Assembly: GCF_014697575.1 (NCBI RefSeq)
Contig: NZ_JACJSC010000008.1
Span: 29,075-93,074, forward strand
Length of the DNA: 64,000 nucleotides
Direction of reading: 5' to 3'
From: Planktothrix sp. FACHB-1365
GTDB taxonomy: Bacteria > Cyanobacteriota > Cyanobacteriia > Cyanobacteriales > Microcoleaceae
Translations under genes and position numbers: made by a program
In this document: piece after piece, positions 1-55,990 of the stretch
Numbering within the stretch: position 1 is the first letter of the stretch
How the letters are laid out: each line of letters opens with the position of its first letter
The notes under the pieces: model-generated
Seen by the model: the letters and a program-made list of their open reading frames with translations, nothing else
Databases searched by the model: none
What the model was told of the DNA's origin: nothing

Positions 1-252
1 CTTTTCTGTCAAGTTCTAGCGACGGTGATTATGTTCCATAACCTGAAAAAGTTTTCATCAGGTTTTGTATCTTTATTCCTGTTGCTTGACCCAATTATTA
101 CTGCCATATTAGCCTGGGTAATATTTGCGGAAAAACTCACTATCCTTAACTGGGTAGCGTTTTTCGCCGTGTTGGCTGGGATATATTTAGCTAAATCTGC
201 TCAAGGTTCTCAGAAAGCAGCCATTCAAGAAATTACTGTTGACTCAGACTAA
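1..252 (+). CDS. C-terminal part of an EamA/DMT-family transporter (gene starts upstream of window)
   Basis: Hydrophobic TM-rich tail (…LLLDPIITAILAWVIFAEKLTILNWVAFFAVLAGIYL…) typical of the second EamA repeat. Frame is open to the window edge. Confidence 0.45.
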   Translation, partial: LFCQVLATVIMFHNLKKFSSGFVSLFLLLDPIITAILAWVIFAEKLTILNWVAFFAVLAGIYLAKSAQGSQKAAIQEITVDSD

Positions 253-1375: not shown

Positions 1376-1380
1376 ATATT

Positions 1381-2502: not shown

Positions 2503-2551
2503 GGCAGGTATTTTACATCCCACGCTTGAAAGACGTGGGCTTTGAATACTG

Positions 2552-2809
2552 TTATTGTAAAAGTTCGTCCAGTTTTCCCTGCTTATCTAATGCGGAAATA
2601 TCGTCAAAACCACCAATATGTTGATCATTGATGAAAATTTGAGGAACACTCCGTCTGCCATTAGCTCGTTCTGCCATCTTAGCTCTAGCGTCTTCATCCC
2701 CATCAATAGAGTATTCAGTAAATTCAACCCCTTTCTTCTTAAGTAAGGCTTTGGCTCTAGGGCAAAAAGGGCAATAAGTCCAAGTGTAAATTTCTACTTT
2801 AGCAGTCAT
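2552..2809 (-). CDS. grxC: Glutaredoxin 3
   Basis: 85 aa with active site CPFC (YTWTYCPFCPRAKALL) and the C-terminal GGFDD motif of classical dithiol glutaredoxins. Confidence 0.85.
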   Translation of the reverse strand: MTAKVEIYTWTYCPFCPRAKALLKKKGVEFTEYSIDGDEDARAKMAERANGRRSVPQIFINDQHIGGFDDISALDKQGKLDELLQ

Positions 2810-2847
2810 GGTATGTTTAATCGAGGGATATCGTTTTTTATTTTAGC

Positions 2848-4359: not shown

Positions 4360-4515
4360 TGATCTGGGTTTTGGGGAGTAGGGGGCGAGGCGTTTGTCTA
4401 TGAAGCAGGAGTACCCACTGCCATTAGTGAAACGTTGACAGTGGTACTTCACTTAGGCATTGTAACAATGGTAGTATGTCGTAGATGTGCTGTATATAGC
4501 TTTTGAGTATTAATA

Positions 4516-6261
4516 ATGGGGAAAATAGAAAAAAGGGATTTAACTTTAGTAGAAATACTACGGGATCAGGCCGTTGCTCAACCTCACCAAATAGCATTTA
4601 AGTTTCTTCCAAATGGAGAACAAGAATCAGATCAATTAACCTATCAAGAATTGGATCAAAAAGCCAGAGCAATTGCCTATCAACTGGGTCAGAAAATTAA
4701 TCGGGGCGAAAGAGTATTATTATTATATCCACCCGGTTTAGAATTTATTAGTGCTTTTTTTGGATGTTTATATGCTGATGCGATCGCAGTTCCTGTTAAT
4801 CCCCCTCGACCCAACAGACCAGCAACTCGGCTTTTAACAATCAAATCAGATTCACAAGCAACATTAGCACTAACTACAACATCTTTATTCAGCAAACTCA
4901 AATCACAACTAACTCATTATCCCGAATTAGCAACTTTACCTTTAATGGTTAGTGATGAAATCAGTATTGATCTAGCTTCAAATTGGGAGAAATCAACAAC
5001 AACAATAGATTCTTTAGCTTTTCTCCAATACACATCTGGATCGACAGGAACACCAAAAGGAGTAATGGTAACTCATGGTAATTTACTCCACAATTCGCAG
5101 TATATCAAACAAGCCTTTCAACTGACACAAGACAGTATATCGGTTAGCTGGCTACCCAGTTTTCATGATATGGGTCTAATTGATGGAATTATTCAGCCTT
5201 TGTACACCGGATTTATGGGGGTATTGATGAAACCTGAAAGTTTTATCCAACACCCTTGGCGATGGCTACAGGCAATTACAAACTACAAAGCAACCCACTG
5301 CGGCGGGCCTAATTTTGCCTACGATCTTTGCGTTCAAAAGATTACCAATGAACAACTTGAAACCCTCGACCTCAGTAGCTGGGAAAGTGCTTACAGTGGT
5401 TCTGAACCCGTGCGGAGAGACACTTTAGAGCGTTTTATTGCTAAATTTGCCCCTTGTGGTTTCACGGCTAAGAGTTTTTATCCCTGCTATGGGATGGCTG
5501 AATCTACCTTAATGATTTCAGGGGGACTTGTTCAAGAAGAACCCATTTACTGCACAGTTGCAGCAGAGGCATTAGAGCAAAATGGGGTGACAGAAGCATC
5601 TAAAGACGTTGAAAATGTTAGACATCTCGTTGGATGTGGACGAGCTTGGCTAGATACCCAAATTGTCATCGTTGAACCCGAATCTTTTCAGCAATGTGAT
5701 TCAGGTCAAGTCGGGGAAATCTGGGTATCGGGTGAAAGTGTTGCTCAAGGCTATTGGAACCAACCGGAACTTTCAGAACAAGCTTTTGGAGCTTATCTAA
5801 CAGATCCGCATCAGGGGCCGTTTCTCCGCACTGGGGATCTAGGATTTTTGCGAGAGGGTGAGCTATTCATCACGGGACGGATGAAAGATATGATTATTAT
5901 TAGAGGTCGCAATTATTACCCCCAAGATATTGAAATCACAGTAGAAACTAGCCATCCAGCGTTGCGAGGCAATTGTTGTGCAGCTTTTGCAATAGAAAAA
6001 GACAATACAGAGCAGTTAGTCATAGTAGCTGAAGTCGAACGGACACATTTACGACATCTGAATGTTAAAGAGGTCGTCGCAGAAATCGGCGAAGCCATCA
6101 TGCAGCAACATGAAATCCAGGCTTATGGCACGGTACTGATTAAAACGGGGAGTATTCCTAAAACTTCCAGTGGCAAAATTCAACGGCGTATTTGCAAAGA
6201 AAAGTTTCTATGCGAAACTCTCAATATTGTCGGGGGAAAGATTGGCAAATCGGAGTTATAA
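4516..6261 (+). CDS. Fatty acyl-AMP ligase (FAAL)
   Basis: Adenylation core motifs (LQYTSGSTGTPKGVMVTHGNLL; YGMAESTL; TGDLGF) and the ~581-aa FAAL architecture. N-terminal DLTLVEILRDQA…AFKFL is typical of FAALs rather than acyl-CoA synthetases. Confidence 0.8.
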   Translation: MGKIEKRDLTLVEILRDQAVAQPHQIAFKFLPNGEQESDQLTYQELDQKARAIAYQLGQKINRGERVLLLYPPGLEFISAFFGCLYADAIAVPVNPPRPNRPATRLLTIKSDSQATLALTTTSLFSKLKSQLTHYPELATLPLMVSDEISIDLASNWEKSTTTIDSLAFLQYTSGSTGTPKGVMVTHGNLLHNSQYIKQAFQLTQDSISVSWLPSFHDMGLIDGIIQPLYTGFMGVLMKPESFIQHPWRWLQAITNYKATHCGGPNFAYDLCVQKITNEQLETLDLSSWESAYSGSEPVRRDTLERFIAKFAPCGFTAKSFYPCYGMAESTLMISGGLVQEEPIYCTVAAEALEQNGVTEASKDVENVRHLVGCGRAWLDTQIVIVEPESFQQCDSGQVGEIWVSGESVAQGYWNQPELSEQAFGAYLTDPHQGPFLRTGDLGFLREGELFITGRMKDMIIIRGRNYYPQDIEITVETSHPALRGNCCAAFAIEKDNTEQLVIVAEVERTHLRHLNVKEVVAEIGEAIMQQHEIQAYGTVLIKTGSIPKTSSGKIQRRICKEKFLCETLNIVGGKIGKSEL

Positions 6262-6321
6262 AGTCCTTTAGTTTTAAATTTTCCCCTGCTATTTAAACCT
6301 AGGTAAATTGAGGAAACATCA

Positions 6322-7308
6322 ATGTCTATACCAGTGGATAGCCCAACACCCAATATAAGCCCCAAGATCACCCTAGAAAATGATTATCTTAAATCCCTGC
6401 AACAGCGTTACGCCTTTGCTACTATCTTGATTCCTTTTTTGGGGTTATTAATAGCCATTTATACAACTTTTAAATTCGGGATTAGTTCAGTAGACATTGG
6501 ACTATTTCTGATCATGTATACCTTGACAATGCTGGGAATAACAGTGGGTTTTCACCGACATTTTGCTCACGGTGCTTTTAAGACCAATACAGTCATGAGA
6601 GTCCTGTTGGCAATATTAGGATGTATGTCCGCTCAAGGGCCAGTGATTCAATGGGCAAGTATTCACCGTCGGCATCACAAGTATAGCGATCGCCCAGGCG
6701 ATCCCCACTCCCCCTTAATATACAAAGGAGAAAAATGGGCAACTCTGCGGGGATTGTGGCATGGTCAAGTTGCTTGGATGTTGAACAGTGACGTTACCAA
6801 TACGGTTGTTTTTGCTAAAGACTTGCTCAGAGATCCAATAATTACCAAAGTCAATCGTTTCTATCTGACTTGGGTTATCCTGGGTTTAGCCATTCCGGCA
6901 ATTGTAGACGGACTTCTCACGGGAACTTGGATAGGTATTTTACAAGGATTTCTCTGGGGGGGATTGGTGCGAATCTTTTGTGTTAATCATGCCTTTTGGA
7001 CGATTAACTCCATTGCTCACTGTTATGGACAACGCCCCTTTGATACCGAAGAGCAAAGCCGCAACACATTCTGGCTATCTCTAGCCAACTTTGGAGAAGC
7101 TTGGCATAACAATCATCATGCCTTTCCCCACTCAGCCTTGTTAGGTCTGAAATGGTGGCAAATTGATATTGGTGGTGGGGTGATTCTGGCTCTCCAAAAA
7201 GTAGGTTTAGCTTGGGATCTCAAAACCCCCACAGCAGGGATGATTGCAGAGAAGTTGAAGGTTAACAAACAGTCAGAAAATTTAACAATAGATGCCAGCA
7301 ATTTCTAG
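6322..7308 (+). CDS. Membrane fatty-acid desaturase, delta-9 (DesC/SCD) family, paralog 1
   Basis: Three His boxes HRHFAHGAF / HRRHHKYSD / HNNHHAFPHS with 4 predicted TM helices. Confidence 0.8.
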   Translation: MSIPVDSPTPNISPKITLENDYLKSLQQRYAFATILIPFLGLLIAIYTTFKFGISSVDIGLFLIMYTLTMLGITVGFHRHFAHGAFKTNTVMRVLLAILGCMSAQGPVIQWASIHRRHHKYSDRPGDPHSPLIYKGEKWATLRGLWHGQVAWMLNSDVTNTVVFAKDLLRDPIITKVNRFYLTWVILGLAIPAIVDGLLTGTWIGILQGFLWGGLVRIFCVNHAFWTINSIAHCYGQRPFDTEEQSRNTFWLSLANFGEAWHNNHHAFPHSALLGLKWWQIDIGGGVILALQKVGLAWDLKTPTAGMIAEKLKVNKQSENLTIDASNF

Positions 7309-7378
7309 TAAACTAGACTGAATCTGGATTTTTTGCAGTGCCAACTTTTTCTATTGCGTCATCATGAGGAGTTAGAGA

Positions 7379-8332
7379 ATGACAACACATTGCGATAGTG
7401 CCATACCCAATCAGAAGACAAAGGTTATTAGCAATGACTACATTAAAGGACTGCAATATAAACATTTTTGGTGGTACAATTTCATTCCCTTTTTAGGAAC
7501 AATTGTGGCCATCATTTCGCTGTGGTGGCTACCCATTGGGCCAATCGAGATCGGAATGCTGATTGTGATGTGGGCTTTGACCATGACCGGGGTGAGTGTC
7601 GGTTTTCATCGCTACTATACCCATCGTGCTTTTAAAACTAACCAGAGCATTCGGGTGATATTCGCCATACTGGGTTCTGTAGCTGCCCAAGGGCCCTTAA
7701 TTTCCTGGGTAGCTGTTCATCGTCGCCATCATGAGTGCAGTGATCTACCCGGTGATCCCCATTCCCCTAATCTTCACGGTCAGGGATTTCTCGGAACTCT
7801 CAAGGGATTATGGCATTCCCATGTGGGCTGGCTGATTGATCATGATTATCCTAATCCGGCCTATTATGCCCCCGAACTCCTGCGAGATCAAAGCATATCC
7901 AAAATTAGCCGATTGTATGTAGTTTGGGTGCTTCTGGGTCTAGCGATTCCTACTGTGATCGGCGGACTACTTCATTGGTCCCTAATAGGAGCATTGCAAG
8001 GCTTTCTTTGGGGGGGTGTTGTGCGCCTGTTTATTGTAGATAACATCATATTGAGCGTTAATTCTGTATCTCATCTTTACGGGACTCGTGGTTTTAAGAC
8101 AGGCGATCAAAGCAAGAATAACCCTTGGGTGGCCATCCCAACGTTTGGCGAGTCTTGGCAAAACAATCACCATGCGTTTGAAAGCTCTGCTGCTATCGGT
8201 ATGAAAGGGTGGCAAATTGATATTGGTTATGCAGTAATTTGGATCTTGGAAAAATTAGGCTGGGCTTGGGATGTAAATCTGCCCACCGCCAAGATGATAG
8301 AGGCGAAAACAATTACCCTAGCTCAGGATTAA
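7379..8332 (+). CDS. Membrane fatty-acid desaturase, delta-9 family, paralog 2
   Basis: His boxes HRYYTHRAF / HRRHHECSD / QNNHHAFESS. Box 3 begins with Q rather than H, which is a notable variant. Confidence 0.75.
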   Translation: MTTHCDSAIPNQKTKVISNDYIKGLQYKHFWWYNFIPFLGTIVAIISLWWLPIGPIEIGMLIVMWALTMTGVSVGFHRYYTHRAFKTNQSIRVIFAILGSVAAQGPLISWVAVHRRHHECSDLPGDPHSPNLHGQGFLGTLKGLWHSHVGWLIDHDYPNPAYYAPELLRDQSISKISRLYVVWVLLGLAIPTVIGGLLHWSLIGALQGFLWGGVVRLFIVDNIILSVNSVSHLYGTRGFKTGDQSKNNPWVAIPTFGESWQNNHHAFESSAAIGMKGWQIDIGYAVIWILEKLGWAWDVNLPTAKMIEAKTITLAQD

Positions 8333-8369
8333 AGTCCCGACTACAAAACTTATGTAGGTTGAGCCAACA

Positions 8370-9302
8370 ATGCAAGCAATCACAATTAAAAGCGATCGCC
8401 TGAAAAGACAACAAGAAATTCACGGCATCAGCAATCTCATCATTCCCTTAAGCGGATCTGTAGCAGCAGTAGTCCTGGCTTTTCAGATCGGTGTTAGTGC
8501 CGTAGATATCTGGCTATTGCTGATTATGTATTTTTTAACAGCAATTGGCGTAACAGTAGGGCTGCATAGACACTTTGCCCACTGCGCCTTCGGGGCTAAT
8601 CAGACGGTGAGAATTATCCTGGCTGTCCTGGGTTCTATGGCCGCAGAAGGCCCCCTCAATTATTGGGTAGCCACCCATCGCCGTCACCACAAATACAGCG
8701 ATACCCCTGGAGATCCCCATTCTCCCTTTGTTAAAGAAGATCAAAAATTGGGCTTTTTAGAAGGGTTATGGCATTCTCATGTTGGTTGGACATTCAATCA
8801 TGAACTCACGAACACCTTTGTCTTTGCTAAAGACATGGTGCGAGATCCCATGCTGAACAGAATTAGCCAACTTTATTATTTGTGGCTATTTTTGGGGGTA
8901 GCGATTCCGGGTGTTATTGGTGGAGTAATCACCGGAACTTGGATGGGGGCCTTGACCGGAACATTATGGGGCGGCTTTCTCCGTATCTTCCTTCAACACC
9001 ATTTAGGTTTCTGGACGGTTGGCTCTTTGGCCCATCTCTTAGGAAATCGTCCCTTTGAGACTGACGACTATAGCCGCAATAACCTCTGGGTGGCTTTGTT
9101 CACCTGTGGAGAATGGCACAACAACCACCATGCTTTTCCTTATGCGGCTATTCATAGTTTCCAATGGTGGCAAATCGATGTCGGTGGCTTCGTGATTCGA
9201 CTACTCGAAAAGCTAGGTTGGGTTTGGGACTTGAAAATGCCCACAGCCGAAGCGATCGCCGCTAAAAAAAGAAAGGTTAGTGGTAATGAAGCCTGCAACT
9301 AG
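8370..9302 (+). CDS. Membrane fatty-acid desaturase, delta-9 family, paralog 3
   Basis: His boxes HRHFAHCAF / HRRHHKYSD / HNNHHAFPYA. Confidence 0.8.
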   Translation: MQAITIKSDRLKRQQEIHGISNLIIPLSGSVAAVVLAFQIGVSAVDIWLLLIMYFLTAIGVTVGLHRHFAHCAFGANQTVRIILAVLGSMAAEGPLNYWVATHRRHHKYSDTPGDPHSPFVKEDQKLGFLEGLWHSHVGWTFNHELTNTFVFAKDMVRDPMLNRISQLYYLWLFLGVAIPGVIGGVITGTWMGALTGTLWGGFLRIFLQHHLGFWTVGSLAHLLGNRPFETDDYSRNNLWVALFTCGEWHNNHHAFPYAAIHSFQWWQIDVGGFVIRLLEKLGWVWDLKMPTAEAIAAKKRKVSGNEACN

Positions 9303-9368
9303 CCTTCAAGTTAGGCATTAAACCCAGAAAAGCAATGATTAACCGCAATCATAAACCTAGCTGATCCA

Positions 9369-10334
9369 ATGATTACAGAACCTCTTGTTAATCCAGACAA
9401 AAGACAAAAAACCGTCACAGCCCCTCATCTGACAGTTCCTCAAACCATACACTTCATCTTGTTTGAAGTTGTACCTTTTTTGGGATTCATCACCGCCATT
9501 GTTTTACTATTGTTCGGAATTCCTATGACTTGGGTGGACTTAGGGCTGTTTATCAGTTTGTGGTTCTTAACTCAAATTGGCTTTACTGTGGGTTGGCATC
9601 GCCTTTTTAGCCATAATGCGTTTAAAGCCAATGTCGTTGTTAGAGTGACCTTAGCAATTCTGGGATCTATGGCAGCCCCTGGCCCCTTGCTGTTGGCAGT
9701 AGCCGCCCATCGTCGTCACCATGAATATGCCGATCAACTCGGAGATCCTCATTCTCCCCATCTTTTTGGAGAAGGAGTTACGGATCAGATCAAAGGCTTT
9801 TGGCACGCTCATGATGGCTGGTTAGCGACCAACAGAGAACACCCCAATACCATCCACTATGTTCCAGACTTACTGCGGGACAAAGCCCTAACAACAGTGA
9901 GCCGATATTATTGGCTGTGGGTGATTTTAGGACTGGTCATTCCTGCTATCCTAGGCGGAGTTTTGACAAACTCATGGCTGGGAGCTTTTCAAGGCTTTCT
10001 TTGGGGAGGACTGGTGCGGATGTTCTTTGTCAATAACCTCATCAATGGCGTCAACTCTTTTTGTCATGTCCTTGGCGGTCGCTCCTTTAATACCCCTGAT
10101 CACAGCCGGAACAATCTCTGGCTGGCTCTTCCTTCCTTGGGTGAAGGATGGCACAATAGTCACCATGCTTTTCCGCAATCAGCCATTTTTGGTTTCGACT
10201 GGTGGCAAGTTGATATCGGGGGCTGGGTTGTCCTCATTTTGGAAAAGCTGGGTTTAATTTGGGATGTCAAAATTCCTAAAGCCGATACTATCAAAGCTAA
10301 AAAAGCTTTTTTAGCCGCAAAAAAGGCAACATAG
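9369..10334 (+). CDS. Membrane fatty-acid desaturase, delta-9 family, paralog 4
   Basis: His boxes HRLFSHNAF / HRRHHEYAD / HNSHHAFPQS. Confidence 0.8.
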   Translation: MITEPLVNPDKRQKTVTAPHLTVPQTIHFILFEVVPFLGFITAIVLLLFGIPMTWVDLGLFISLWFLTQIGFTVGWHRLFSHNAFKANVVVRVTLAILGSMAAPGPLLLAVAAHRRHHEYADQLGDPHSPHLFGEGVTDQIKGFWHAHDGWLATNREHPNTIHYVPDLLRDKALTTVSRYYWLWVILGLVIPAILGGVLTNSWLGAFQGFLWGGLVRMFFVNNLINGVNSFCHVLGGRSFNTPDHSRNNLWLALPSLGEGWHNSHHAFPQSAIFGFDWWQVDIGGWVVLILEKLGLIWDVKIPKADTIKAKKAFLAAKKAT

Positions 10335-10511
10335 CAGGATACTAGAATCTATCTCCTGTACTGTCTTAATCCTGAACCTAATTTTCTTGTTTTAGCTTCT
10401 TCCGCAACGAGTGCCCCACGACTGACCCGATAGGGAAGCGTGGGATGAATTGCGGTCAGGGACTAGAATGTTCAATAATTGGTTATAATTAGAAAAAGGG
10501 GGTGATTTAAA

Positions 10512-11723
10512 GTGCTGAAGGCAACAAAAGTTAGGTTATATCCAACATCAGAACAGGAATTGGTATTAGCTAAATCGTTTGGTTGTGCAAGATGGTATTG
10601 GAATTTTGCCTTAAACACCTGTATTCAGCACTATCAAGAAACTGGTAAAAGTTTAAAACTGGCATCCTACAAAGGGATGTTACCTCAACTCAAAAAAGAA
10701 TATCCTTGGCTCAAAGAAGATTGCTATTCATCGGTTCTCCAATGTGTAGCCATAAACTTAGATAGAGCCTACAAAAACTTTTTTGAGGGACGAGCTAAAT
10801 TTCCCAATTTCAAATCTAAACATCACAAACAATCTATCCAATATCCCCAAAGTGTTACTGTTAACGGTGAATATCTAAAAGTCCCTAAGATTGGTGAAAT
10901 CAAAGCAGTATTCCACCGAGAAGTTACGGGAAAGATTAAAACGGTAACAATCTCCAAAACTTCGACTGATAAATATTTTGCTTCAATTTTATGTGAAGTG
11001 GAAGGAACTGAAGTTAAACAGTCGGGAGATCGGATTATTGGGATTGATCTGGGGTTAAAAGATTTCGCAATTACTCATAATGGAGAGAATGCAACTAAAT
11101 ATGCTAACCCTAAACATTTATGTCGTCATCAGAAAAATTTAGCCCGAAAACAGAAAAAACTCTCCCGAAAAACCAAAGGCAGTAAATCGAGAGAGAAGTT
11201 TAGAAAAACTGTAGCTAAGGTTCATGAGAAGATAGCTAATTCCCGCCAAGATTTCTTGCATAAATTATCAAGAAAATTGGTAAACGAAAGCCAAGTGATT
11301 GTCGTTGAAAACCTCAACGTCAAGGGGATGGTTAAGAACCGAAAGTTATCTCAGTCAATATCTGATGTGGGATGGGGAAAATTTGTCAACTTTATTGATT
11401 ACAAGTTGAAGCAAAAAAATGACGAACTTGTAGAAATTGATCGCTTCTTCCCCAGTTCCAAAACCTGCTCCTGTTGTGGTCATATCCTAGATGAGTTACC
11501 TCTGGATATCAGAGAATGGGATTGCCTCAATTGCCATACTCACCATGACCGTGATGAAAACGCTGCATTAAATATCAGGAATGAAGGCATCAGAATATTA
11601 ACTGAAGGCGGAGGGAACCCCGTCTTTGCCGATGGAGGCTGTGTAAGTCCACCTGCTTGTAAAAGTAAGAGGCATCGGTCTGTGAATTCGGAAGCCTACA
11701 CCGACCCGATTAGGGCGGTGTAG
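10512..11723 (+). CDS. tnpB: TnpB (OrfB) RNA-guided endonuclease of IS200/IS605 family
   Basis: N-terminus MLKATKVRLYPTSEQE, RuvC-I GIDLGLKDFA, RuvC-II VVVENLNVKGM, zinc finger CSCCGH…CLNCHTHHDRDENAALNI. GTG start. Confidence 0.9.
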   Translation: MLKATKVRLYPTSEQELVLAKSFGCARWYWNFALNTCIQHYQETGKSLKLASYKGMLPQLKKEYPWLKEDCYSSVLQCVAINLDRAYKNFFEGRAKFPNFKSKHHKQSIQYPQSVTVNGEYLKVPKIGEIKAVFHREVTGKIKTVTISKTSTDKYFASILCEVEGTEVKQSGDRIIGIDLGLKDFAITHNGENATKYANPKHLCRHQKNLARKQKKLSRKTKGSKSREKFRKTVAKVHEKIANSRQDFLHKLSRKLVNESQVIVVENLNVKGMVKNRKLSQSISDVGWGKFVNFIDYKLKQKNDELVEIDRFFPSSKTCSCCGHILDELPLDIREWDCLNCHTHHDRDENAALNIRNEGIRILTEGGGNPVFADGGCVSPPACKSKRHRSVNSEAYTDPIRAV

Positions 11724-11800
11724 GTAGTTCACAAATTTAATGTTCACTCATAAAAACCTAGAAAAAAACCTAGAAATTTAGGTTTATAATTTAGGGAATG
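11680..11800 (+). ncRNA. Putative TnpB omegaRNA/reRNA scaffold (3' end of tnpB plus RE)
   Basis: Established knowledge that TnpB guide RNAs derive from the tnpB 3' end/RE. Sequence shows the RE hairpin at 11694..11723 and the direct repeat aaaacctagaaa x2 at 11752..11775. Boundaries not determinable by eye. Confidence 0.3.
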
Positions 11801-11808
11801 GATTTTTA

Positions 11809-12153
11809 ATGACCCAATCCATTGTTCCCATTTTTGGTGAGCAAAATTTTTATCCCAGACCCATTCAGGAGAAAATTAGCATGGCAATTCAAAATCAAGA
11901 AATCGCTGTTGAAACCCACAAGAACCAATCCGCTATTCAAGGCTGGTTGGTTTCTTATATAGCCCAACTTCTGGAAATTGATCCCAAAGAAGTTGATGTT
12001 AAAGCTTCTTTTGACCGCTATGGCTTGGATTCCTCAGCGACTATTGGATTAACTAGCGATTTAGAGAACTGGTTGGGAGGTTCTATTGATCCAACGATAA
12101 CCTATGATTATCCCTCAATTGAGTCTTTATCAAAACATCTAGCTGGATCATAA
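11809..12153 (+). CDS. Stand-alone acyl carrier protein (PP-binding domain)
   Basis: 114 aa. Phosphopantetheine attachment motif FDRYGLDSSATIGLTSDLENWLG with surrounding helices typical of FAAL-partner ACPs. Confidence 0.6.
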   Translation: MTQSIVPIFGEQNFYPRPIQEKISMAIQNQEIAVETHKNQSAIQGWLVSYIAQLLEIDPKEVDVKASFDRYGLDSSATIGLTSDLENWLGGSIDPTITYDYPSIESLSKHLAGS

Positions 12154-12251
12154 GCTAATTTATTTCTGAAAAAATATTAAACCCCTTGCTATTGGCTAGG
12201 GGTTTAAAAATTAGAGATTTAAAATATTTGTAAAATTATAAATTAACAGAT

Positions 12252-12743
12252 ATGGAAACTATTAATTTCACCGTAAACCACATAAAAGTGTCTTCAGAAA
12301 AATCCTTTGCCCAAGTGACAACGGCTATAGAGTCAATGGTTGGTAAAGCTAATAATCTGATTTTTCAAAAGCTGATCGATGCAAATGCCTCTTTTACAGA
12401 AGTAGAAAATGCAGTTAAATCAATGGTGGGTAAAAATGATTTAATGATTTTTACACACCTTGAATCTGGTAAAGTGCTTTCCTTATGTGGCAAATTTAAA
12501 CAAGCTAAACTTTATATAATGGGTAATCCCCTGATTGCGAATCAAATGTTTGAAGAAGACCCGGCAGTCGGTCTTTACGTTCCCCTGCGATTGTTTGTGT
12601 ATGATGAATATAATGGCAAAACTTATATTACCTATGATCAACCTTCATCTCTATTAGGTAGATTTGAGAATCCGAAAATTTTGAGAGTTGCAGAAATGCT
12701 CGATCAAAAGCTCCAAGAATTAGTTACAATGGCTGTCCAATAG
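12252..12743 (+). CDS. DUF302 domain protein
   Basis: C-terminal segment …YIMGNPLIANQMFEEDPAVGLYVPLRLFVYDEYNGKTYITYDQPSSL matches the DUF302 consensus (FGNP…G…L……lDLPLkvlvwed.dGkv.vsY..P). Confidence 0.5.
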   Translation: METINFTVNHIKVSSEKSFAQVTTAIESMVGKANNLIFQKLIDANASFTEVENAVKSMVGKNDLMIFTHLESGKVLSLCGKFKQAKLYIMGNPLIANQMFEEDPAVGLYVPLRLFVYDEYNGKTYITYDQPSSLLGRFENPKILRVAEMLDQKLQELVTMAVQ

Positions 12744-20759: not shown

Positions 20760-21488
20760 ATGAAAATCGTGCTGGAGAATATTCACAAATCCTACCGTAA
20801 ACGCACCGTTGTCAGTCGAGTTAATCTCTCCGTTTCTCAAGGGGAAATTGTGGGATTATTAGGGCCCAATGGTGCAGGGAAAACCACGACATTTTATATT
20901 GCAACGGGGTTAGAAAAACCAACCCAAGGAAATGTTTATCTCAATGAACTTGATATTACCCATTTACCCATTCATCAACGCGCCCAGTTAGGCATTGGTT
21001 ATTTGGCTCAACAAGCGAGTATTTTTCGCCATCTCAGTGTCAGGGATAATATTTTATTGGTTTTACAGCAAACCCGTGTTCCGCGTCATTTATGGCAAAA
21101 ACGTCTCCATACTCTGTTGCGGGAGTTTCGCTTAGAAAAAGTTGCCTCGACTTTAGGCTATCAAGTTTCTGGAGGAGAACGACGACGGACAGAACTAGCC
21201 CGTGCTTTAGCGGCGGGGTTGGAATTGCCTCAGTTTTTACTCTTAGATGAACCTTTTGCTGGAGTTGACCCCATTGCCGTTTCTGAAATTCAAGAAATCG
21301 TGGCTCAATTACGCACTCGTAATCTGGGAATCTTAATTACAGATCATAACGTCCGAGAAACCTTAGCGATTACAGACCGAGCCTATATTATGCGGGATGG
21401 ACAAATTTTTGCATCGGGAACCGCAGAAGAACTCTACAATAACCCCCTAGTGCGGCAGTATTATCTGGGTGACAGTTTTCAATTATGA
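20760..21488 (+). CDS. lptB: LPS export ABC transporter ATP-binding protein LptB
   Basis: Walker A GPNGAGKTT, signature VSGGERRR, Walker B LLLDEPFAGVD. 242 aa, overlapping start of downstream permease. Confidence 0.85.
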   Translation: MKIVLENIHKSYRKRTVVSRVNLSVSQGEIVGLLGPNGAGKTTTFYIATGLEKPTQGNVYLNELDITHLPIHQRAQLGIGYLAQQASIFRHLSVRDNILLVLQQTRVPRHLWQKRLHTLLREFRLEKVASTLGYQVSGGERRRTELARALAAGLELPQFLLLDEPFAGVDPIAVSEIQEIVAQLRTRNLGILITDHNVRETLAITDRAYIMRDGQIFASGTAEELYNNPLVRQYYLGDSFQL

Positions 21489-27090: not shown

Positions 27091-28368
27091 ATGTCTAATT
27101 ACGTCTTTGTAATTGATACAAATAAACAGCCTCAAAACCCAGTACATCCTGCTCAAGCTCGATTGTTATTGAATCAAGGTCAAGCTGCGGTTTATCGTCG
27201 TTATCCGTTTACTATTATCTTAAAGGAGTCAAAACCCGAATTAGAAATAGAACAAATCACTCTTAAAATTGACCCCGGTTCAAAAACCACTGGAATTACA
27301 TTAGTTCAAGGAAACAAAGTAATTTGGGGTGCGGAATTAACTCATCGAGGTCAAACAATTAAAATGTCTTTGGAATCTCGATGTTTATTACGTCGCTCCC
27401 GAAGAAATCGTAAAACTAGATATCGTCAACCTCGATTTCTGAACCGAAAACGTTTAGAAGGTTGGTTAGCACCCAGTCTTCAGCATCGAGTAGAAACAAC
27501 TCTAACTTGGGTCAGTAAATTAATTAGGTTTGCACCTATTCGTTCAATCATTCAAGAGTTAGTCAGATTTGACTTACAACAACTTGAAAATCCTGAGATT
27601 TCAGGAATTGAATATCAACAAGGCGAGTTACAAGGATACGAAGTTCGGCAATATTTATTGGAGAAATGGAGTAGAAAATGTGCTTACTGTGGGGTTAAAA
27701 ATACACCCTTAGAAGTGGAACATATTCACCCTAAATCCCAAGGCGGAACTGACCGAATTTCCAATCTTACTGTTGCTTGTCATGACTGTAATCAAAAGAA
27801 AGGAAATCAAGATATTCAAGATTTCCTATCAGGTAAACCTGACTTACTGCCCCGGATTTTGAAACAAGCTAAACAACCGTTAAAAGATGCTACAGCCGTT
27901 AATTCAACCCGATGGTTACTGTTTAATCGCTTAAAAGAAACGGGTTTACCTGTTTCAACTAGCTCCGGTGGTTTAACTAAATTCAATCGCACTCGATTAA
28001 ATCTACCTAAAACCCATTGGCTAGATGCAGCTTGTGTTGGGAAAGTTGAAACTTTAAAGGTGTTAACCAATAAACCTTTATTGATTCTGGCAACAGGACG
28101 TGGCACTCGTCAAATGTGTGGTACAGACAAATACGGATTTCCAACACGACATCGCTCACGAATACAGATTCACAAAGGCTTTCAGACGGGCGATATTGTT
28201 AAAGCTGTTGTTACTAAAGGTAAGAAAATAGGCTTTTATTTAGGTCGAGTTCTTTGTCGCGCATCTGGCAGTTTTGATCTTGTTACTCCTCATGGAAGAG
28301 TAGCAGGAATTAGTCACAAATATTGTCAATCAATTCATAAAAAGGATGGTTATTCTTATGGATTCTAA
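27091..28368 (+). CDS. iscB: IscB RNA-guided nuclease (OMEGA system; RRXRR/HNH/RuvC)
   Basis: PLMP-like N-terminus (…AAVYRRYPFTIIL), RuvC-I KIDPGSKTTGITL, Arg-rich bridge helix RRSRRNRKTRYRQPRFLNRKR, HNH CAYCG…LEVEHIHPKSQGGTDRISNLTVACHDCNQKKGN, RuvC-III HWLDAACVG. 425 aa. Confidence 0.85.
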   Translation: MSNYVFVIDTNKQPQNPVHPAQARLLLNQGQAAVYRRYPFTIILKESKPELEIEQITLKIDPGSKTTGITLVQGNKVIWGAELTHRGQTIKMSLESRCLLRRSRRNRKTRYRQPRFLNRKRLEGWLAPSLQHRVETTLTWVSKLIRFAPIRSIIQELVRFDLQQLENPEISGIEYQQGELQGYEVRQYLLEKWSRKCAYCGVKNTPLEVEHIHPKSQGGTDRISNLTVACHDCNQKKGNQDIQDFLSGKPDLLPRILKQAKQPLKDATAVNSTRWLLFNRLKETGLPVSTSSGGLTKFNRTRLNLPKTHWLDAACVGKVETLKVLTNKPLLILATGRGTRQMCGTDKYGFPTRHRSRIQIHKGFQTGDIVKAVVTKGKKIGFYLGRVLCRASGSFDLVTPHGRVAGISHKYCQSIHKKDGYSYGF

Positions 28369-48627: not shown

Positions 48628-50127
48628 ATGGCTTTCTTCAAAGACTTTACCACCGCGCTTAAAGATAAGTGGTTGCAATATTACCAAGCCAATCGAGAGT
48701 GGCTGGTACTGCAAATGGATTTGAATTCAATACCGACCCCCGATGGGGGTCGAAGACCCGCCTCCTCCCTCATTTTGGGAACGATCAACGCGCTTGACCC
48801 AGAGGCAGCCCAACTCATGTTGCCCTTTTCTAAACTCAATCCAGATCCTGAAAAACTGATTGATGTTTTAGGGCTGAATTTTGATCCCGATATAGCGTTG
48901 GACATTAGGCCTACCCCAGGAGAATCTCCAACGGTAGTTGTTCCAACGCCAACTCCGGTTCCTCCGGCCCCTCCAGAGACACTGAATTTAGAGGAGGAAG
49001 TGACTCTGGTAGAACAACCCAATATAGCGGGTGCTGCCGTGGCCGTTGCCAGTGCTGCCGCTGTTGTTGGAGGGGCTGCGGTGATTGCCGATACCCTGGA
49101 TGACTCCGATGAACTCGAGCTTGATACCGAAGAAGAAATCACCATCGATGAGATGGGCCTGGATGATTCCGGCATGGATGATGATTTCGGAATGGATGAT
49201 CTGGATGCAGAGGCAATGGAGGACACTGATGTCGATGGGGATCTGGATTTAGATATCGACACAGAGACGGCTAGCGTAGCCGAGGAAGACTTTGATCTAG
49301 GGTTGGAGGATGAATCAGAAGCCGTCGGTGCTGATGACCTAGACATGGGCTTAGATTCCGATGAGATGGGTGCTGATGACCTGGACATGGGTTTAGACTC
49401 CGATGAGATGGGTGCTGATGACCTAGACATGGGCTTAGATTCCGATGAGATGGGTGCTGATGACCTAGACATGGGTTTAGATTCCGATGAGATGGGTGCT
49501 GATGACCTAGACATGGGTTTAGATTCCGATGAGATGGGTGCTGATGACCTGGACATGGGTTTAGACTCCGATGAGATGACATCCGATGATTTCGATTTGA
49601 GCTTAGATTCGCAAACGGAATCGGCTGAATTAGACATTGATACCGAATCTGATGTCTGGGACGACAACGTTAATACGGAACTGGGTGAAGACACGGAGAC
49701 AAGCGATGATATCGATTTTGGTTTGGAATCCTCCGATGATCTGGGTTCAGATGGAATGGACGATCTCAGCTTAGAGTCGGAAGTTTTAGCCGCAGATGAC
49801 TTGGATGGAGAAATCAGCCTAGAAGCTGACGACCTTGGTTCTGATGATTTAGGAGGGTTGGAATTAGAAGATACAGATTCAAGTCTGGATGATGATTTGG
49901 GTGATTTAGGATTGGAAGATAACTCTTCCGATGGCCTGGATCTCGATACCGGAGATAATTTAGACGATTTAGGATTAGGGGATGATGATTTTTCATCCGA
50001 TGATTTAGGGGATTTTAATCTCGACGATATGGGTGATTTAACAACTGGAGATATGGACGATATTGATATCGACGGATTAACCGGTTCTTCAGATGATGAC
50101 GAAATTTCCCTGTCGGATTTTAAATAA
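48628..50127 (+). CDS. Highly acidic repeat protein encoded between chlL and chlN
   Basis: ~90-aa conserved N-terminal domain (MAFFKDFTTALKDKWLQYYQANREWLVLQMDLNS…). The rest is Asp/Glu-rich, including six tandem 14-aa repeats DDLDMGLDSDEMGA. Confidence 0.6.
   Translation: MAFFKDFTTALKDKWLQYYQANREWLVLQMDLNSIPTPDGGRRPASSLILGTINALDPEAAQLMLPFSKLNPDPEKLIDVLGLNFDPDIALDIRPTPGESPTVVVPTPTPVPPAPPETLNLEEEVTLVEQPNIAGAAVAVASAAAVVGGAAVIADTLDDSDELELDTEEEITIDEMGLDDSGMDDDFGMDDLDAEAMEDTDVDGDLDLDIDTETASVAEEDFDLGLEDESEAVGADDLDMGLDSDEMGADDLDMGLDSDEMGADDLDMGLDSDEMGADDLDMGLDSDEMGADDLDMGLDSDEMGADDLDMGLDSDEMTSDDFDLSLDSQTESAELDIDTESDVWDDNVNTELGEDTETSDDIDFGLESSDDLGSDGMDDLSLESEVLAADDLDGEISLEADDLGSDDLGGLELEDTDSSLDDDLGDLGLEDNSSDGLDLDTGDNLDDLGLGDDDFSSDDLGDFNLDDMGDLTTGDMDDIDIDGLTGSSDDDEISLSDFK
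49329..49580 (+). repeat. Six tandem 42-bp in-frame repeats (gctgatgacctagacatgggcttagattccgatgagatgggt)
   Basis: Read directly. Units at 49329, 49371, 49413, 49455, 49497 and 49539 differ by a few synonymous/wobble changes. Confidence 0.85.
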
Positions 50128-50235: not shown

Positions 50236-51654
<1,419 letters not shown>

Positions 51655-51684
51655 TTGCTTTAGACAATGGATTAGTATAATAAA

Positions 51685-51720
51685 AAGGGTGATCGAATGC
51701 GATCGCCCTTTTTGTTGTTT
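51685..51720 (+). terminator. Rho-independent terminator after chlN
   Basis: Hairpin gggtgatcg-aatg-cgatcgccc followed by tttttgttgttt. Confidence 0.5.
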
Positions 51721-51760
51721 ATAATAAAAATATTCATATCCTTAAAAAAATAGATCAATT

Positions 51761-52966
51761 ATGACAAATTCTCCAAATGAAAAACTAAAATTGAATAATG
51801 AAAAGGATGGTATTCAAGATGAGACAGATATTGATTTAGAAGATTTTGATGATGACAATATAATTGAAGCAGATGATGAAGGAATTAATGAACCATTTGA
51901 TCCAACTAAAATTAGAGTTGATACTCGACCAATGACCATCGACCTTATGCTCAACCGAATTAAACATGGAGAGCTTGAACTTTCACCTGATTTTCAGCGT
52001 AAAGAAGTTTGGACTGATGTTGCTAAAAGTAAATTGATTGAGTCTATTCTGATTCGTATTCCTTTACCTGCTTTTTATATTGATGCTACTAATGAAGATA
52101 AATGGATAGTTATAGACGGATTACAACGATTAACAGCACTAAAACAATTTATCCTAGAACCTGATTCTAATGATAATCAATTAGGGAAAAATAAATTAAA
52201 GTTAACTAAGCTAGATTATCTAAAAGATCTTGAATGCAAAACTTATGATGAACTTCCTCGTAAATATCAGCGTCGTATCCTTGAAACTCAGTTACTATTA
52301 TATGTGATTGAAGAAGGTACACCTACTGAAGTTAAGTACAGTATATTTAGACGAATTAATACGGGTGGAGTTCCTCTATCACCCCAAGAACTTCGCAACG
52401 CACTTAATCAAGGAAAAGCCACTAAATTATTAGCTAAATTAACGGCAATAGACGAGTTTAAAAAAGTTACAAAACTCGATCAATCTAAAAGGCAACAAAG
52501 AATGATTGATCAGGAGTTTGTCTTGGGATTTTTAGCCTATACACTCAATAATTATTATGATTTTCCTAAATCAAAAAGTAGAGATGAATTTTTTCATAAA
52601 ACAATGGAGAAGATTAATAAAACTTTATCAGAGAATCAGATCAAGGAGATCGAATTTAATTTTAAACGTGCGATGGTTGCAGCTTATGATATTTTTGGAG
52701 AAGGAGCTTTTCGGAAAAAACCTAAAAGTGGTTCTAAGCATAACCCCATTAACCAGGCTTTATTTGAAGTTTGGTCTGTCAGTCTCAGTCAACTTAGTAA
52801 CTTGGATTTAGAAAAACTTAAAGAAAGAAAAGAAATTTTAATCAATCAATTTATTAATCTAGTAGAAAATGATTCTGAGTTTTTTAGATCAATTTCTCAA
52901 GCTGCTGAAAAAGTAACAGTTAGGTTTAGTAAAGTAGAACAATTAATTCAAGAGGTACTAGGATGA
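51761..52966 (+). CDS. DUF262 (ParB/Srx-like, GmrSD N-terminal-type) domain protein with acidic N-terminus
   Basis: …FQRKEVWTDVAKSKLIESILIRIPLPAFYIDATNEDKWIVIDGLQRLTALKQF matches the DUF262 core including the DGQQR-type motif (DGLQRLT). No DUF1524/HNH tail visible. AT-rich codon usage. Confidence 0.7.
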   Translation: MTNSPNEKLKLNNEKDGIQDETDIDLEDFDDDNIIEADDEGINEPFDPTKIRVDTRPMTIDLMLNRIKHGELELSPDFQRKEVWTDVAKSKLIESILIRIPLPAFYIDATNEDKWIVIDGLQRLTALKQFILEPDSNDNQLGKNKLKLTKLDYLKDLECKTYDELPRKYQRRILETQLLLYVIEEGTPTEVKYSIFRRINTGGVPLSPQELRNALNQGKATKLLAKLTAIDEFKKVTKLDQSKRQQRMIDQEFVLGFLAYTLNNYYDFPKSKSRDEFFHKTMEKINKTLSENQIKEIEFNFKRAMVAAYDIFGEGAFRKKPKSGSKHNPINQALFEVWSVSLSQLSNLDLEKLKERKEILINQFINLVENDSEFFRSISQAAEKVTVRFSKVEQLIQEVLG

Positions 52967-54075
52967 TTCATTCCCTAAAGTTGGAAAATTTTAAATGTTT
53001 TCAAGAACAATCACTTCAGTTTAAATCTTTGACGCTACTTTCGGGTCTGAATAGCACTGGTAAATCGTCTGTGTTACAGTCCTTACTACTTTTACGCCAA
53101 TCTTATCAACAAGATTTATTACCCGAAAAAGGATTAGCATTGAATGGAGATTTAGTATGTATAGGTACAGCCAAAGATGCTTTATTCGAGGATGCAGAAG
53201 AAGATGCAATTGGTTTTACAATTACCTGGAATAATGAACTTCAAGGAAAGTGGCATTTTAATTATAATGAAGTTGCAGATGTTCTCGATTTAACTTCATC
53301 TGAAGTGACTTCTGAAATTTATCAATCCAATCTGTTTAATGACAATTTTCACTATCTACAAGCTGAACGTATTGGCCCTCGTGCCTATTTAGAAATGTCA
53401 GACTTTCAGGTGCAAATACATAAGCAAATTGGTACTAGAGGCGAATATACAGCACATTTTTTAGCTCTCTATAAGTCTGATTCTATTCCTAATAGTGTGC
53501 TTAGTCATCCATCTGAACAATCATCAAAACTAGGATTTCAGGTTCAAGCATGGATGGGAGAAGTTAGCCCTGGAACACAAATTACAATTAATAATAATCC
53601 ACAACTAGATTTAATTAATTTACAATATTCTTATGACCTGAGTAATCAACGTCGTGCTACTAACGTAGGTTTTGGAATTAGTTATGTTTTACCAATTCTT
53701 GTAGCTATATTATCCTCCAAACCGGGTACATTAATATTAATAGAAAACCCTGAAGCTCATCTTCATCCTAAAGGACAAGCAAAAATGGGTGAATTATTAG
53801 CTTTAGCGGCAAGTTGTGGGGTTCAAATTGTTATAGAAACCCATAGTGATCATATTGTCAATGGGGTTCGCCTTGCTGTTCATGATGGTAAAATTAAACC
53901 AGAAGATTTTCAGTTACACTATTTTCAACGACAAGATAAAAATGGAGCATTTATGACAGAAGTAATATCTCCAAGAATTGATCGTAATGGCAGTTTCGAT
54001 GAATGGCCAGATGGCTTTCTCGATCAGTGGGAACAAAGTTTAATTGCTTTACTTAAACCCAGGAGTGTGTCATAG
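52963..54075 (+). CDS. ABC-type AAA ATPase (AAA_15/21-like) with DUF3696-like C-terminal tail
   Basis: N-terminus IHSLKLENFKCF…LTLLSGLNSTGKSSVLQSL (Walker A). Walker B/D-loop and H-loop LILIENPEAHLHPKGQAKM…VIETHSDHIV. C-terminal FDEWPDGFLDQWEQ. Start overlaps upstream stop (ATGA). Confidence 0.7.
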   Translation: MIHSLKLENFKCFQEQSLQFKSLTLLSGLNSTGKSSVLQSLLLLRQSYQQDLLPEKGLALNGDLVCIGTAKDALFEDAEEDAIGFTITWNNELQGKWHFNYNEVADVLDLTSSEVTSEIYQSNLFNDNFHYLQAERIGPRAYLEMSDFQVQIHKQIGTRGEYTAHFLALYKSDSIPNSVLSHPSEQSSKLGFQVQAWMGEVSPGTQITINNNPQLDLINLQYSYDLSNQRRATNVGFGISYVLPILVAILSSKPGTLILIENPEAHLHPKGQAKMGELLALAASCGVQIVIETHSDHIVNGVRLAVHDGKIKPEDFQLHYFQRQDKNGAFMTEVISPRIDRNGSFDEWPDGFLDQWEQSLIALLKPRSVS

Positions 54076-55017
54076 ATGAATCTGGAAATGGTATTAAATG
54101 AACTATCCCTGAAAAATCGTGCTGATAGTATTCAGGAAGCTCAAGAATGGATCTTAAATTTAGTAAATACCGCACTACTAGCGATTGATATTTCTGGTAT
54201 GACTAAGGGGGTACTTCGCGCTGATCAAAATTCATATACAAGTTTAATAGCCGATAATTATTCTATACTAAATTGGTGTGCTGATAAAAGCGTAGACCCC
54301 ACTAAAAGAGTTTTTCTTCTCAGTTCTATTAAAATCCCTTTTGAAGCTGAAATCAATAATCCAGACATTCAATCAAAACAATTAAGTTCAGAGTTTTTTT
54401 ATGAAGAAGAATCCTCTAAAGGTCTGGGATGGGCTTTTCTTCTGGATACACTTGCTGTTAGTTTACCTTCTGATGGAAGATGGAAAAATAGCCATTTAAA
54501 ATTAGTAGTTGAAGAATTAGATGATAGTGACAATCTGATTTCAACAACTGTTGATGTTATTCATGCTAGTCAAATTAGTCATGTTATTGGTCACACTACT
54601 TGGTTACAAAAACGTCTTGAATTAAGTGTAAGTAGTAGCGAAGAGCTTTGGGAACGTAAAGATGAGTTATTCCCTCATCTAAAATTTTGTGATCACGTTG
54701 AGCAACAAATCAAAACTCTTTTAGTGGGTGATCCAATGTTTAAACAAGTTAAGAAGAAGTTATTTGAGCTTGAAGAAGCTGCTAACAATTGGAAAGAAGG
54801 TTTTTTTGATTACGATAATCTTCCAAGTAAAGCGTCTCCAGAAAGTGAATCTAGGTTAAATAAATTTGAGAAAGAACTGACTTTTAGGTGTCCTGATCAT
54901 ACAAAAAAAACTTTTACTTTGCACCTTAGAATGACACCTGGTGATTGGAGGCTCTATTTTTTTCCTTCTAAACTTGGACAAATCCTTATTGGATATATTG
55001 GGCGTAAAATACAGTAA
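54076..55017 (+). CDS. Hypothetical protein, third gene of the DUF262/ATPase cassette
   Basis: 313-aa ORF starting 1 nt after the ATPase stop. No recognisable motif. Same low-GC composition. Confidence 0.5.
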   Translation: MNLEMVLNELSLKNRADSIQEAQEWILNLVNTALLAIDISGMTKGVLRADQNSYTSLIADNYSILNWCADKSVDPTKRVFLLSSIKIPFEAEINNPDIQSKQLSSEFFYEEESSKGLGWAFLLDTLAVSLPSDGRWKNSHLKLVVEELDDSDNLISTTVDVIHASQISHVIGHTTWLQKRLELSVSSSEELWERKDELFPHLKFCDHVEQQIKTLLVGDPMFKQVKKKLFELEEAANNWKEGFFDYDNLPSKASPESESRLNKFEKELTFRCPDHTKKTFTLHLRMTPGDWRLYFFPSKLGQILIGYIGRKIQ

Positions 55018-55058
55018 TAATTAATTTAGCCAAATAACTTTATTTAAGCGGTTAAGAA

Positions 55059-55241
55059 ATGATCCAAGAATTTAATGTACTTATTGAGAAAGATTCAGAT
55101 GGTTATTTTGTGGCATCAGTTCCTACTTTAAAAGGTTGTCACACACAAGCAAAATCTTTAGATGAGCTTAGGTCACGAATTCAAGCAGCAATAGAACTTT
55201 GCTTAGAATTTGATAACACTGAACATGAACTCTTAATTTAA
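55059..55241 (+). CDS. HicB-like (UPF0150) antitoxin-fold small protein, no adjacent HicA
   Basis: 60 aa: …EKDSDGYFVASVPTLKGCHTQAKSLDELRSRIQAAIELCLE matches the HicB N-terminal domain consensus (G.y.a..P.lpGc.tqG.t.eEa..n..eAi.l.le). Confidence 0.55.
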   Translation: MIQEFNVLIEKDSDGYFVASVPTLKGCHTQAKSLDELRSRIQAAIELCLEFDNTEHELLI

Positions 55242-55243
55242 GA

Positions 55244-55990
55244 TTACTCAACTTTAACTAAAAATTCATATTCAAACCCTTTATAATTAGAATCTAGTTG
55301 TAACGTATATTCTCCGGTTAGGAGAAGTTTATTAGAAAAAACTTTTGTATCGGGTGTAATACCCAGATTATCTGTTAATAATTCACCATTGGGACTCATT
55401 ACCATTGGGAAGACAGATTTATAATTTTCAATCGTTAAAGTTTGACCTGCGATCGCTGTAATTTTATAATTGTGACTTCCGCCGCCAATAATTTTTCCCT
55501 GAACTAACGCTGCATTTCCACCGGGTAAAAACTCAATATTTTTTTCCACTATCGAACAACTGCTCTCGGTGCGACTTTTTGCAATCCATCCACTCACAGG
55601 ATTATTAATTTTAAACCATCCGTTTTTTTCTTCAATTACAAAAACAAAAGTATTATTATTCAATTGACCAACAATATTACCCTCTGTTACTTCTGGTGTT
55701 GAACGAACGTTCAATGGTGCATCCGGGTCTTTGACAACGGCTGTGCTAATTTTGCAACCCTCCACAGGGGGTTTAATAATAGCAATCGGAGGTGTTTCCG
55801 ATGGTGGTGATGTGTTGGGAACGGATGCGGGAACGGAGGTAATGGGGGGTTCAGAAGGTCGAGGAGACTCGGTTTGAGGGGTTGGGGACGATTTCGATGA
55901 GGGAGACTGAACCGTCATCACAGCAATTGTGACTCCAGCAATTACCCCAGCTACACCTGCTATAATCAGTTGGCTAGGTTTAATGGACAT
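55244..55990 (-). CDS. Membrane-anchored protein with Pro-rich linker and bacterial SH3-like domain
   Basis: N-terminal TM (IIAGVAGVIAGVTIAVM), PSTE-rich linker, then DAPLNVRSTPEVTEGNIVGQLNNNTFVFVIEEKNGWFKI (SH3b-like). Confidence 0.45.
   Translation of the reverse strand: MSIKPSQLIIAGVAGVIAGVTIAVMTVQSPSSKSSPTPQTESPRPSEPPITSVPASVPNTSPPSETPPIAIIKPPVEGCKISTAVVKDPDAPLNVRSTPEVTEGNIVGQLNNNTFVFVIEEKNGWFKINNPVSGWIAKSRTESSCSIVEKNIEFLPGGNAALVQGKIIGGGSHNYKITAIAGQTLTIENYKSVFPMVMSPNGELLTDNLGITPDTKVFSNKLLLTGEYTLQLDSNYKGFEYEFLVKVE

Follow-up and report, generated by a model that had tools for sequence, protein, structure and literature searches.

What kind of gene cassette lies directly downstream of chlN in the cyanobacterium Planktothrix sp. 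FACHB-1365? The question is raised by a stretch of 64,000 nucleotides of contig NZ_JACJSC010000008.1 (positions 29,075-93,074 of the forward strand), called the window here, to whose numbering all coordinates below refer. Between chlN and a small gene of HicB type, three low-GC genes follow each other on the forward strand, and an earlier reading of the same DNA (the original prediction) had proposed them as a candidate undescribed defence system. Judged from its sequence, the locus is very probably a Type I Menshen (NsnABC) anti-phage operon, a mobile AT-rich cassette that has the chlN terminator on one side and the orphan hicB-like gene on the other.

The proteins of the cassette were searched against Pfam, NCBIfam and the protein models of PADLOC-DB. 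In the last of these, each protein matches a Menshen model over nearly its full length: gene 1 matches NsnA (PDLC03877) at 3.1e-132 (protein residues 11-400, model positions 11-383 of 385), gene 2 matches NsnB (PDLC03878) at 1.5e-132 (residues 1-365, model 1-344 of 345), and gene 3 matches NsnC at 5.4e-92 (residues 1-313, model 1-304 of 305). The runner-up PADLOC matches were much weaker, namely HEC-03B (6e-38), PD-T4-2_A (5.1e-35), AriA (2e-28) and REase_II (3.5e-14), and NCBIfam gave a family-level name to none of the three proteins. All three are full-length members of the Menshen families and keep the catalytic motifs of those families, with an RNase fold of the RelE/YoeB type at the C-terminus of NsnC. 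The reading of the locus as a defence cassette is thereby upheld. The claim of novelty falls, because the trio matches a system already named in PADLOC, an outcome that the original prediction itself had listed as speaking against it.

Menshen was named by Millman et al. 2022 and studied in depth by Li et al. in Nucleic Acids Research (NAR) 2025 (PMC12065111). The archetype is the NsnABC operon of Solibacillus silvestris StLB046, which defends against phages T2, T4, T6 and Fado and is the one Menshen system with demonstrated phage resistance (PMC12065111); defence by the S. silvestris system is abolished when the DUF262 gene is lost. The catalogue of Li et al. comprises 1,997 Menshen loci from 27 phyla, with Cyanobacteriota accounting for 8.16% (PMC12065111). 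The FACHB-1365 locus is an ordinary copy of a system that had been named and validated before and whose cyanobacterial loci are catalogued, and it holds no novelty as such. It shares with the archetype the three-gene order, a Type I NsnA with DUF262 and a C-terminal domain and no HNH, an NsnB ABC ATPase that has EN in Walker B, GxG, and DUF3696 as its tail, and an NsnC with a PIN-like N-domain and a BECR RNase C-domain. It differs in its cyanobacterial host, in its divergent sequences, which were likened to the archetype via family models and the published description, and in the orphan hicB-like gene that follows.

All three open reading frames (ORFs) are intact and lie in the same orientation in the order A-B-C. 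The nsnA gene (51761-52966, plus strand; 401 amino acids, WP_190518869.1, publicly annotated as "DUF262") overlaps nsnB (52963-54075, plus; 370 amino acids, WP_190518870.1, "DUF3696/AAA") in an ATGA at 52963-52966, and the TAG stop codon of nsnB abuts the ATG start of nsnC (54076-55017, plus; 313 amino acids, WP_190518871.1, "hypothetical") at 54075/54076. The proposed translational coupling of the three ORFs was thus found at both junctions. The hicB-like gene follows at 55059-55241 (plus; 60 amino acids, WP_190518873.1, "HicB family"). GC content in this block lies between 0.30 and 0.35, while the flanks have about 0.40-0.45 and the window as a whole 0.397. The GC content at third codon positions (GC3) is 0.16-0.21 across the three nsn genes and the hicB-like gene, compared with 0.34 in chlN, 0.29 in orf248 (an SH3-domain gene on the downstream side) and 0.32-0.44 in further neighbours, which bears out the AT-rich codon usage noted before. 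The HIP1 octamer GCGATCGC occurs at 31 sites in the window and at none inside 51761-55241; since only about 1.7 sites would be expected there, this absence is weak evidence and only suggestive.

The upstream boundary is marked by the intrinsic terminator hairpin of chlN (51680-51715, plus strand), which has a folding energy of -22.2 kcal/mol and a z-score of -7.19, with 0 of 200 shuffled sequences folding as well. The hairpin is centred on a GCGATCGC palindrome and has an A-run on its 5' side and a T-run on its 3' side, so that it could stop transcription both ways. With such a strong terminator after chlN, the nsn cassette is taken as a separate transcription unit. A scan for consensus promoters was uninformative (14 sites against 16.6 expected), and no transposon-like or att-like repeats were found around the cassette in the window.

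The motifs quoted in the original prediction were all located in the proteins. In NsnA, the DUF262 domain (Pfam GmrSD_N, 4.6e-27, residues 64-215) carries QRKEVW at 79, DGLQR at 119 and FRRIN at 196, in agreement with the family pattern QRxxxW, DGxQR and FxxxN. DUF1524, HNH or any other nuclease domain was not detected in NsnA by Pfam, as had been stated. Residues 1-60 are acidic and of low complexity (19 D/E, 6 K/R) and are probably disordered; no domain match was found in them that would correspond to the extra globular sensor domain of Type II Menshen. Because the N-terminus is an acidic stretch and not a domain, the locus is placed in Type I. The C-terminal region, a putative NsnA-C (ParBDB) domain, is covered by the NsnA model up to residue 400 of 401, and the isolated segment gave nothing meaningful in Pfam at E<=1. 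NsnA is the candidate sensor of the system.

NsnB also agrees with its earlier description as an ABC ATPase with a DUF3696 tail, with Pfam matches to AAA_15 (6.3e-26), AAA_21 (1.3e-20) and DUF3696 (1.6e-16). The Walker A motif GLNSTGKS is at residue 28, GFG at 236, the Walker B motif LILIEN at 257 and the H-loop or sensor histidine THS at 293. Here EN replaces DE in Walker B and GFG (GxG) replaces SGG; the EN Walker B, the GxG in place of SGG and the sensor His are variants reported for NsnB (PMC12065111). The DUF3696 tail, including WPDGF, occupies residues 311-360 (53893-54042, plus strand) and is predicted to be the docking site of the NsnC N-domain. NsnB is the ABC-type ATPase of Menshen and its proposed transducer. 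When relatives of solved structure were sought by sequence for the Menshen proteins, the only match was to an OLD ATPase (6e-7).

The third protein had been described as having no recognisable motif, and indeed Pfam matched nothing on full-length NsnC and nothing meaningful on the isolated N- and C-terminal segments at E<=1. Its AlphaFold2 model is of high confidence (mean predicted local distance difference test score, pLDDT, 93.8; 0 residues below 70). It places an alpha/beta PIN-like domain at the N-terminus (about residues 1-165) and a BECR domain at the C-terminus (about 220-313, window 54733-55014), joined by a helical linker (about 166-219). The C-domain is modelled as an RNase domain of the RelE/YoeB/YafQ fold and is the sole nuclease-type fold predicted in the cassette. 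In an alignment of 57 members of the NsnC family, which has 136 detectable and mostly cyanobacterial members, the conserved residues of this domain are E256, R278 (K in the FACHB-1365 protein), H283, R285, R292 and Y307. We infer that these are candidate RNase residues of a YoeB/RelE-like set, and in this they are unlike the archetype, appearing more YoeB/RelE-like than the H-R-H triad reported for PB-BECR1 (PMC12065111). The domain differs from the toxins RelE, YoeB, YafQ, HigB and ParE in that sequence identity to them is 7-17%, in that it sits behind an N-terminal module of about 220 residues, in the lack of a canonical antitoxin, and in that no Pfam toxin model matched even at E<=1. By family and predicted fold, NsnC reads as the effector of Menshen. 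Of the two roles offered for gene 3 in the original prediction, effector or sensor, the first is retained; the candidate sensor is NsnA.

In the Menshen literature, the NsnC N-domain is labelled PIN-like without the catalytic acidic tetrad ('inPIN'), and the C-domain is most often a BECR RNase (PMC12065111). In the family of the FACHB-1365 N-domain (54076-54600, residues 1-175), the acidic residues E9, D70, E106 and D124 are conserved, and a histidine triad H163-x5-H169-x3-H173 (HASQISHVIGH) is 96% conserved. These acidic and histidine residues bear on the disputed label of 'inactive PIN'. A further possibility is that the N-domain of this family retains an active acidic site at E9/D70/E106/D124; NsnC would in that case be a dual nuclease.

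The published Menshen model and the analogy with SspE/GmrSD, Septu, PARIS and Gabija allow a mechanism to be proposed. NsnA would sense invading phage DNA through its ParB-like DUF262 NTPase and its C-terminal DNA-binding region, and would pass the signal to an oligomer of the NsnB ABC-ATPase, stimulating it. The DUF3696 tails of the NsnB oligomer would hold the N-terminal PIN-like domain of NsnC, and ATP binding or hydrolysis in NsnB may cause a conformational change that releases or activates NsnC. The BECR domain of NsnC may then cleave RNA, either of the phage or of the host in the manner of abortive infection, and phage multiplication would stop. Septu (PtuAB), PARIS (AriAB) and Gabija (GajAB) share with this cassette an AAA_15/AAA_21 ATPase, with secondary PADLOC matches to AriA (2e-28), GajA and PtuA, and a proposed logic in which an oligomeric ATPase keeps a nuclease effector bound and gates it. 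Unlike Menshen, they are two-component systems without a ParB/DUF262 sensor, their ATPases lack the DUF3696 tail, and HNH, Toprim or DUF4435 nucleases take the place of a PIN-like-BECR effector.

The A-B-C cassette, with the same coupling geometry, was also found in Oxynema aestuarii (loci L001/L002), in a Nostocales genome (L003/L004) and in a metagenomic contig (L017). The housekeeping genes around it differ from place to place, and GC3 is low in most of these cassettes. The adjacent, co-oriented A-B-C order also occurs in L013 and L005, two loci described below. Since the same cassette stands amid unrelated neighbours, it is taken as a horizontally mobile defence cassette and not as a syntenic set of core genes beside chlN; the supposed horizontal acquisition and the recurrence of the trio in other genomes, which had been put forward as a check, are both in keeping with this.

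Closer relatives offer information on how the alleles diverge. In a sister Planktothrix metagenome-assembled genome (L005; JBIIDK010000001.1, 7750-11261, compared with window 51657-55241), the flanking chlN and orf248 are 96-97% identical in protein sequence and the site between them holds a different Menshen allele, with NsnA 43%, NsnB 59% and NsnC 39% identical. This is the only close relative with both flanks, and its site is occupied by Menshen; in L006-L012, the orf248 homologues are not adjacent to chlN. Nucleotide homology between L005 and the window stops at the chlN stop codon (about 51657) and restarts within nsnC at 54649, at about NsnC residue 192, a point inside the helical linker that joins the two domains of the protein. 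The RNase domains of the two NsnC proteins are 67% identical and the N-domains 21-27%.

In L013-L016, the cassette is located at a different chromosomal site (L013, 6505-10386, compared with window 51380-55229) and is accompanied by a frameshifted 3' fragment of chlN upstream and a 3' fragment of hicB downstream. Between L013 and the window, NsnA and the ATPase body of NsnB are about 94-95% identical and NsnC is 34% identical. The nucleotide identity drops from 93-100% to about 55-60% at about position 53,900 (NsnB residue ~312, the start of DUF3696) and does not recover anywhere in nsnC. The start of DUF3696 thus appears as a natural recombination breakpoint between these two alleles. A third arrangement is seen in a Roseofilum-type contig (L018, 2159-5939), in which NsnB and NsnC lie downstream of chlL-DUF5331-chlN and the slot of nsnA contains a 68-amino-acid antitoxin-like gene and an 80-amino-acid RelE/YafQ-like gene, with an unrelated 221-amino-acid gene on the opposite strand; this locus reads as a remodelled or decayed Menshen locus. 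Taken by their sequences, the Planktothrix alleles are natural chimeras, and their breakpoints at domain boundaries would mark functional modules.

Co-variation of these modules was analyzed by pairwise identity in seven loci (the window, L002, L003, L005, L013, L017 and L018; 21 pairs). Identity of the DUF3696 tail follows that of the NsnC N-domain with a Pearson r of 0.79, and in the exact Mantel test 2 of 5040 permutations did as well; the sample is limited to seven loci, and the tail physically adjoins the 5' end of nsnC. Tail identity gave an r of 0.09 with the ATPase body and a weak r of 0.39 with the NsnC RNase domain, and the N- and C-domains of NsnC were uncorrelated (r = 0.01). This suggests that the tail and the N-domain (window 53893-54570) are exchanged as one unit and co-evolve, which fits an AlphaFold 3 prediction in which paired DUF3696 tails clamp the NsnC N-domain (PMC12065111). 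The NAR paper on Menshen makes no mention of such co-variation or recombination (PMC12065111).

A broader interpretation can be offered tentatively, at somewhat below even chances: the region after chlN in Planktothrix and related Oscillatoriales may be a lineage-specific hotspot of Menshen diversification, in which three modules recombine with breakpoints at domain boundaries. If true, the joint inheritance of DUF3696 and the NsnC N-domain would give the predicted docking interface of NsnB and NsnC its first evolutionary evidence that does not depend on structure prediction. The modules proposed are NsnA with the NsnB ATPase body, the NsnB DUF3696 tail with the NsnC N-domain, and the NsnC RNase domain with hicB, which would serve as the downstream homology anchor.

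The position of the hicB-like gene gives rise to the first rival explanation, that of a Menshen-toxin-antitoxin hybrid with four genes, in which the HicB-like protein would be the antitoxin or regulator of the RelE/YoeB-like RNase domain of NsnC. The gene lies 41 nucleotides 3' of nsnC on the same strand and has the same low GC3 (0.16), three loci of Planktothrix type (the window, L005 and L013) have hicB sequence next to Menshen, and small immunity genes do follow the free BECR toxins that are related to Menshen effectors. However, hicB is absent from the Oxynema and Nostocales loci (L001-L004), from L017 and from the P0122 contig, another chlN-adjacent Planktothrix-type Menshen locus, all of which carry the same NsnC family. 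In L013, NsnABC is intact beside only the last 26 codons of hicB. In L005, hicB is present in two copies, as 170-nucleotide direct repeats that are 88% identical and bracket the cassette, the upstream copy being truncated to 55 codons; a copy upstream of nsnA is better understood as a recombination scar than as part of the operon. The usual partner of HicB is HicA, not toxins of the RelE fold, and PADLOC gave no match for the hicB-like protein. The hybrid is therefore improbable. On the sequences compared, the hicB-like gene is not a conserved component of Menshen, and it looks like a resident neighbour gene that likely serves as a recombination anchor.

An ordinary HicAB toxin-antitoxin pair was also considered and rejected. 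The 60-amino-acid protein bears the HicB-like/UPF0150 fold signature, with a Pfam match to HicB_lk_antitox that is marginal (2e-6, 28.4 bits against a cutoff of 27). Unlike HicAB, it lacks a HicA partner and a DNA-binding C-terminal domain and is only 60 amino acids long; no HicA-sized ORF was found on either strand in 54950-55400. The original description of a HicB-fold gene without HicA is accurate in both respects.

The second rival regards the cassette as a decaying or domesticated remnant that has lost its defence function and would be a selfish, addiction-like cassette kept by recombination at the chlN site. Its surroundings favour this, being housekeeping genes and not a defence island: the immediate neighbours are chlL, a DUF5331 gene, chlN, the SH3 protein (orf248), a GFO/IDH/MocA oxidoreductase and ferredoxins. 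Related loci are also decaying, with nsnA missing from L018 and pseudogene fragments flanking L013. In the window, however, the ORFs are all intact and coupled and every catalytic motif is kept. Moreover, about 72% of catalogued Menshen loci have no linkage to other defence systems (PMC12065111), and the FACHB-1365 cassette stands alone among housekeeping genes just as they do. A remnant is thus a little less probable still than the hybrid.

No Dnd/Ssp, restriction-modification or BREX model was matched by the 38 other ORFs of at least 160 amino acids in the window (PADLOC, E<=1e-8), so the original view of a stand-alone module without dnd or ssp genes is sustained. A phosphorothioate restriction-modification system of the Dnd/Ssp type was rejected, as no dndABCDE or sspABCD match exists among these ORFs. 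PD-T4-2 and Dazbog also have a DUF262 protein without HNH or DUF1524, and PD-T4-2_A matches gene 1 at 5.1e-35; that reading was rejected because the score is far below that of NsnA (119 against 440 bits) and the partner genes in the window are NsnB and NsnC, not theirs.

That the system is genuinely undescribed has a negligible probability: gene 3 has no name in Pfam or NCBIfam and is publicly a 'hypothetical protein', but the Nsn matches in PADLOC are full length (1e-92 to 1e-132), and the architecture, motif variants and effector fold published for Menshen are all reproduced. Hardly credible, too, is a modification-dependent type IV restriction module that cuts DNA in the manner of GmrSD, BrxU or SspE, for which the common DUF262 NTPase sensor domain with its same three motifs and the weaker REase_II match (3.5e-14) may be cited, since those proteins carry a DUF1524 HNH DNA nuclease in fusion with DUF262, DUF1524/HNH is absent from gene 1 and from every neighbour, the effector here is a separate protein whose RelE-superfamily RNase fold is the only nuclease-type fold of the cassette, and no dnd or ssp genes were found among the window's other ORFs of 160 amino acids or more; with no DUF1524 match, the GmrSD-like reading was rejected.

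Some other features of the window deserve mention. In the interval between chlL and chlN (48628-50127, plus strand), a 499-amino-acid protein is encoded that carries DUF5331 at its N-terminus and, after it, an extremely acidic tail in which DDLDMGLDSDEMGA is repeated six times in tandem. Its Roseofilum homologue has only 120 amino acids; the repeat tail is therefore regarded as a lineage-specific expansion. Far from the Menshen locus, PADLOC matched other proteins of the window too. They include an RRXRR/HNH protein with a PtuB-like region at 27091-28365 (plus strand; 2e-12), an LptB-like ABC ATPase with a generic mad3 match at 20760-21485 (plus strand), and, among the first ten ORFs (within 239-12740), one TnpB/OrfB_IS605-like protein matching Cas12f models at 2e-63 and one Csx1-like protein at 9e-45.

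As a discovery, the Menshen locus of FACHB-1365 has small weight; standard defence-finder tools would label it Menshen, and cyanobacterial Menshen is already catalogued. It has some use as material for the study of Menshen and its mechanism, and the chimeric alleles support the DUF3696 tail and the NsnC N-domain as an interacting unit. The same chimeric Planktothrix alleles could guide domain-swap work. In bloom-forming Planktothrix, the variety of Menshen alleles may help to explain differences in cyanophage susceptibility at the level of strains.

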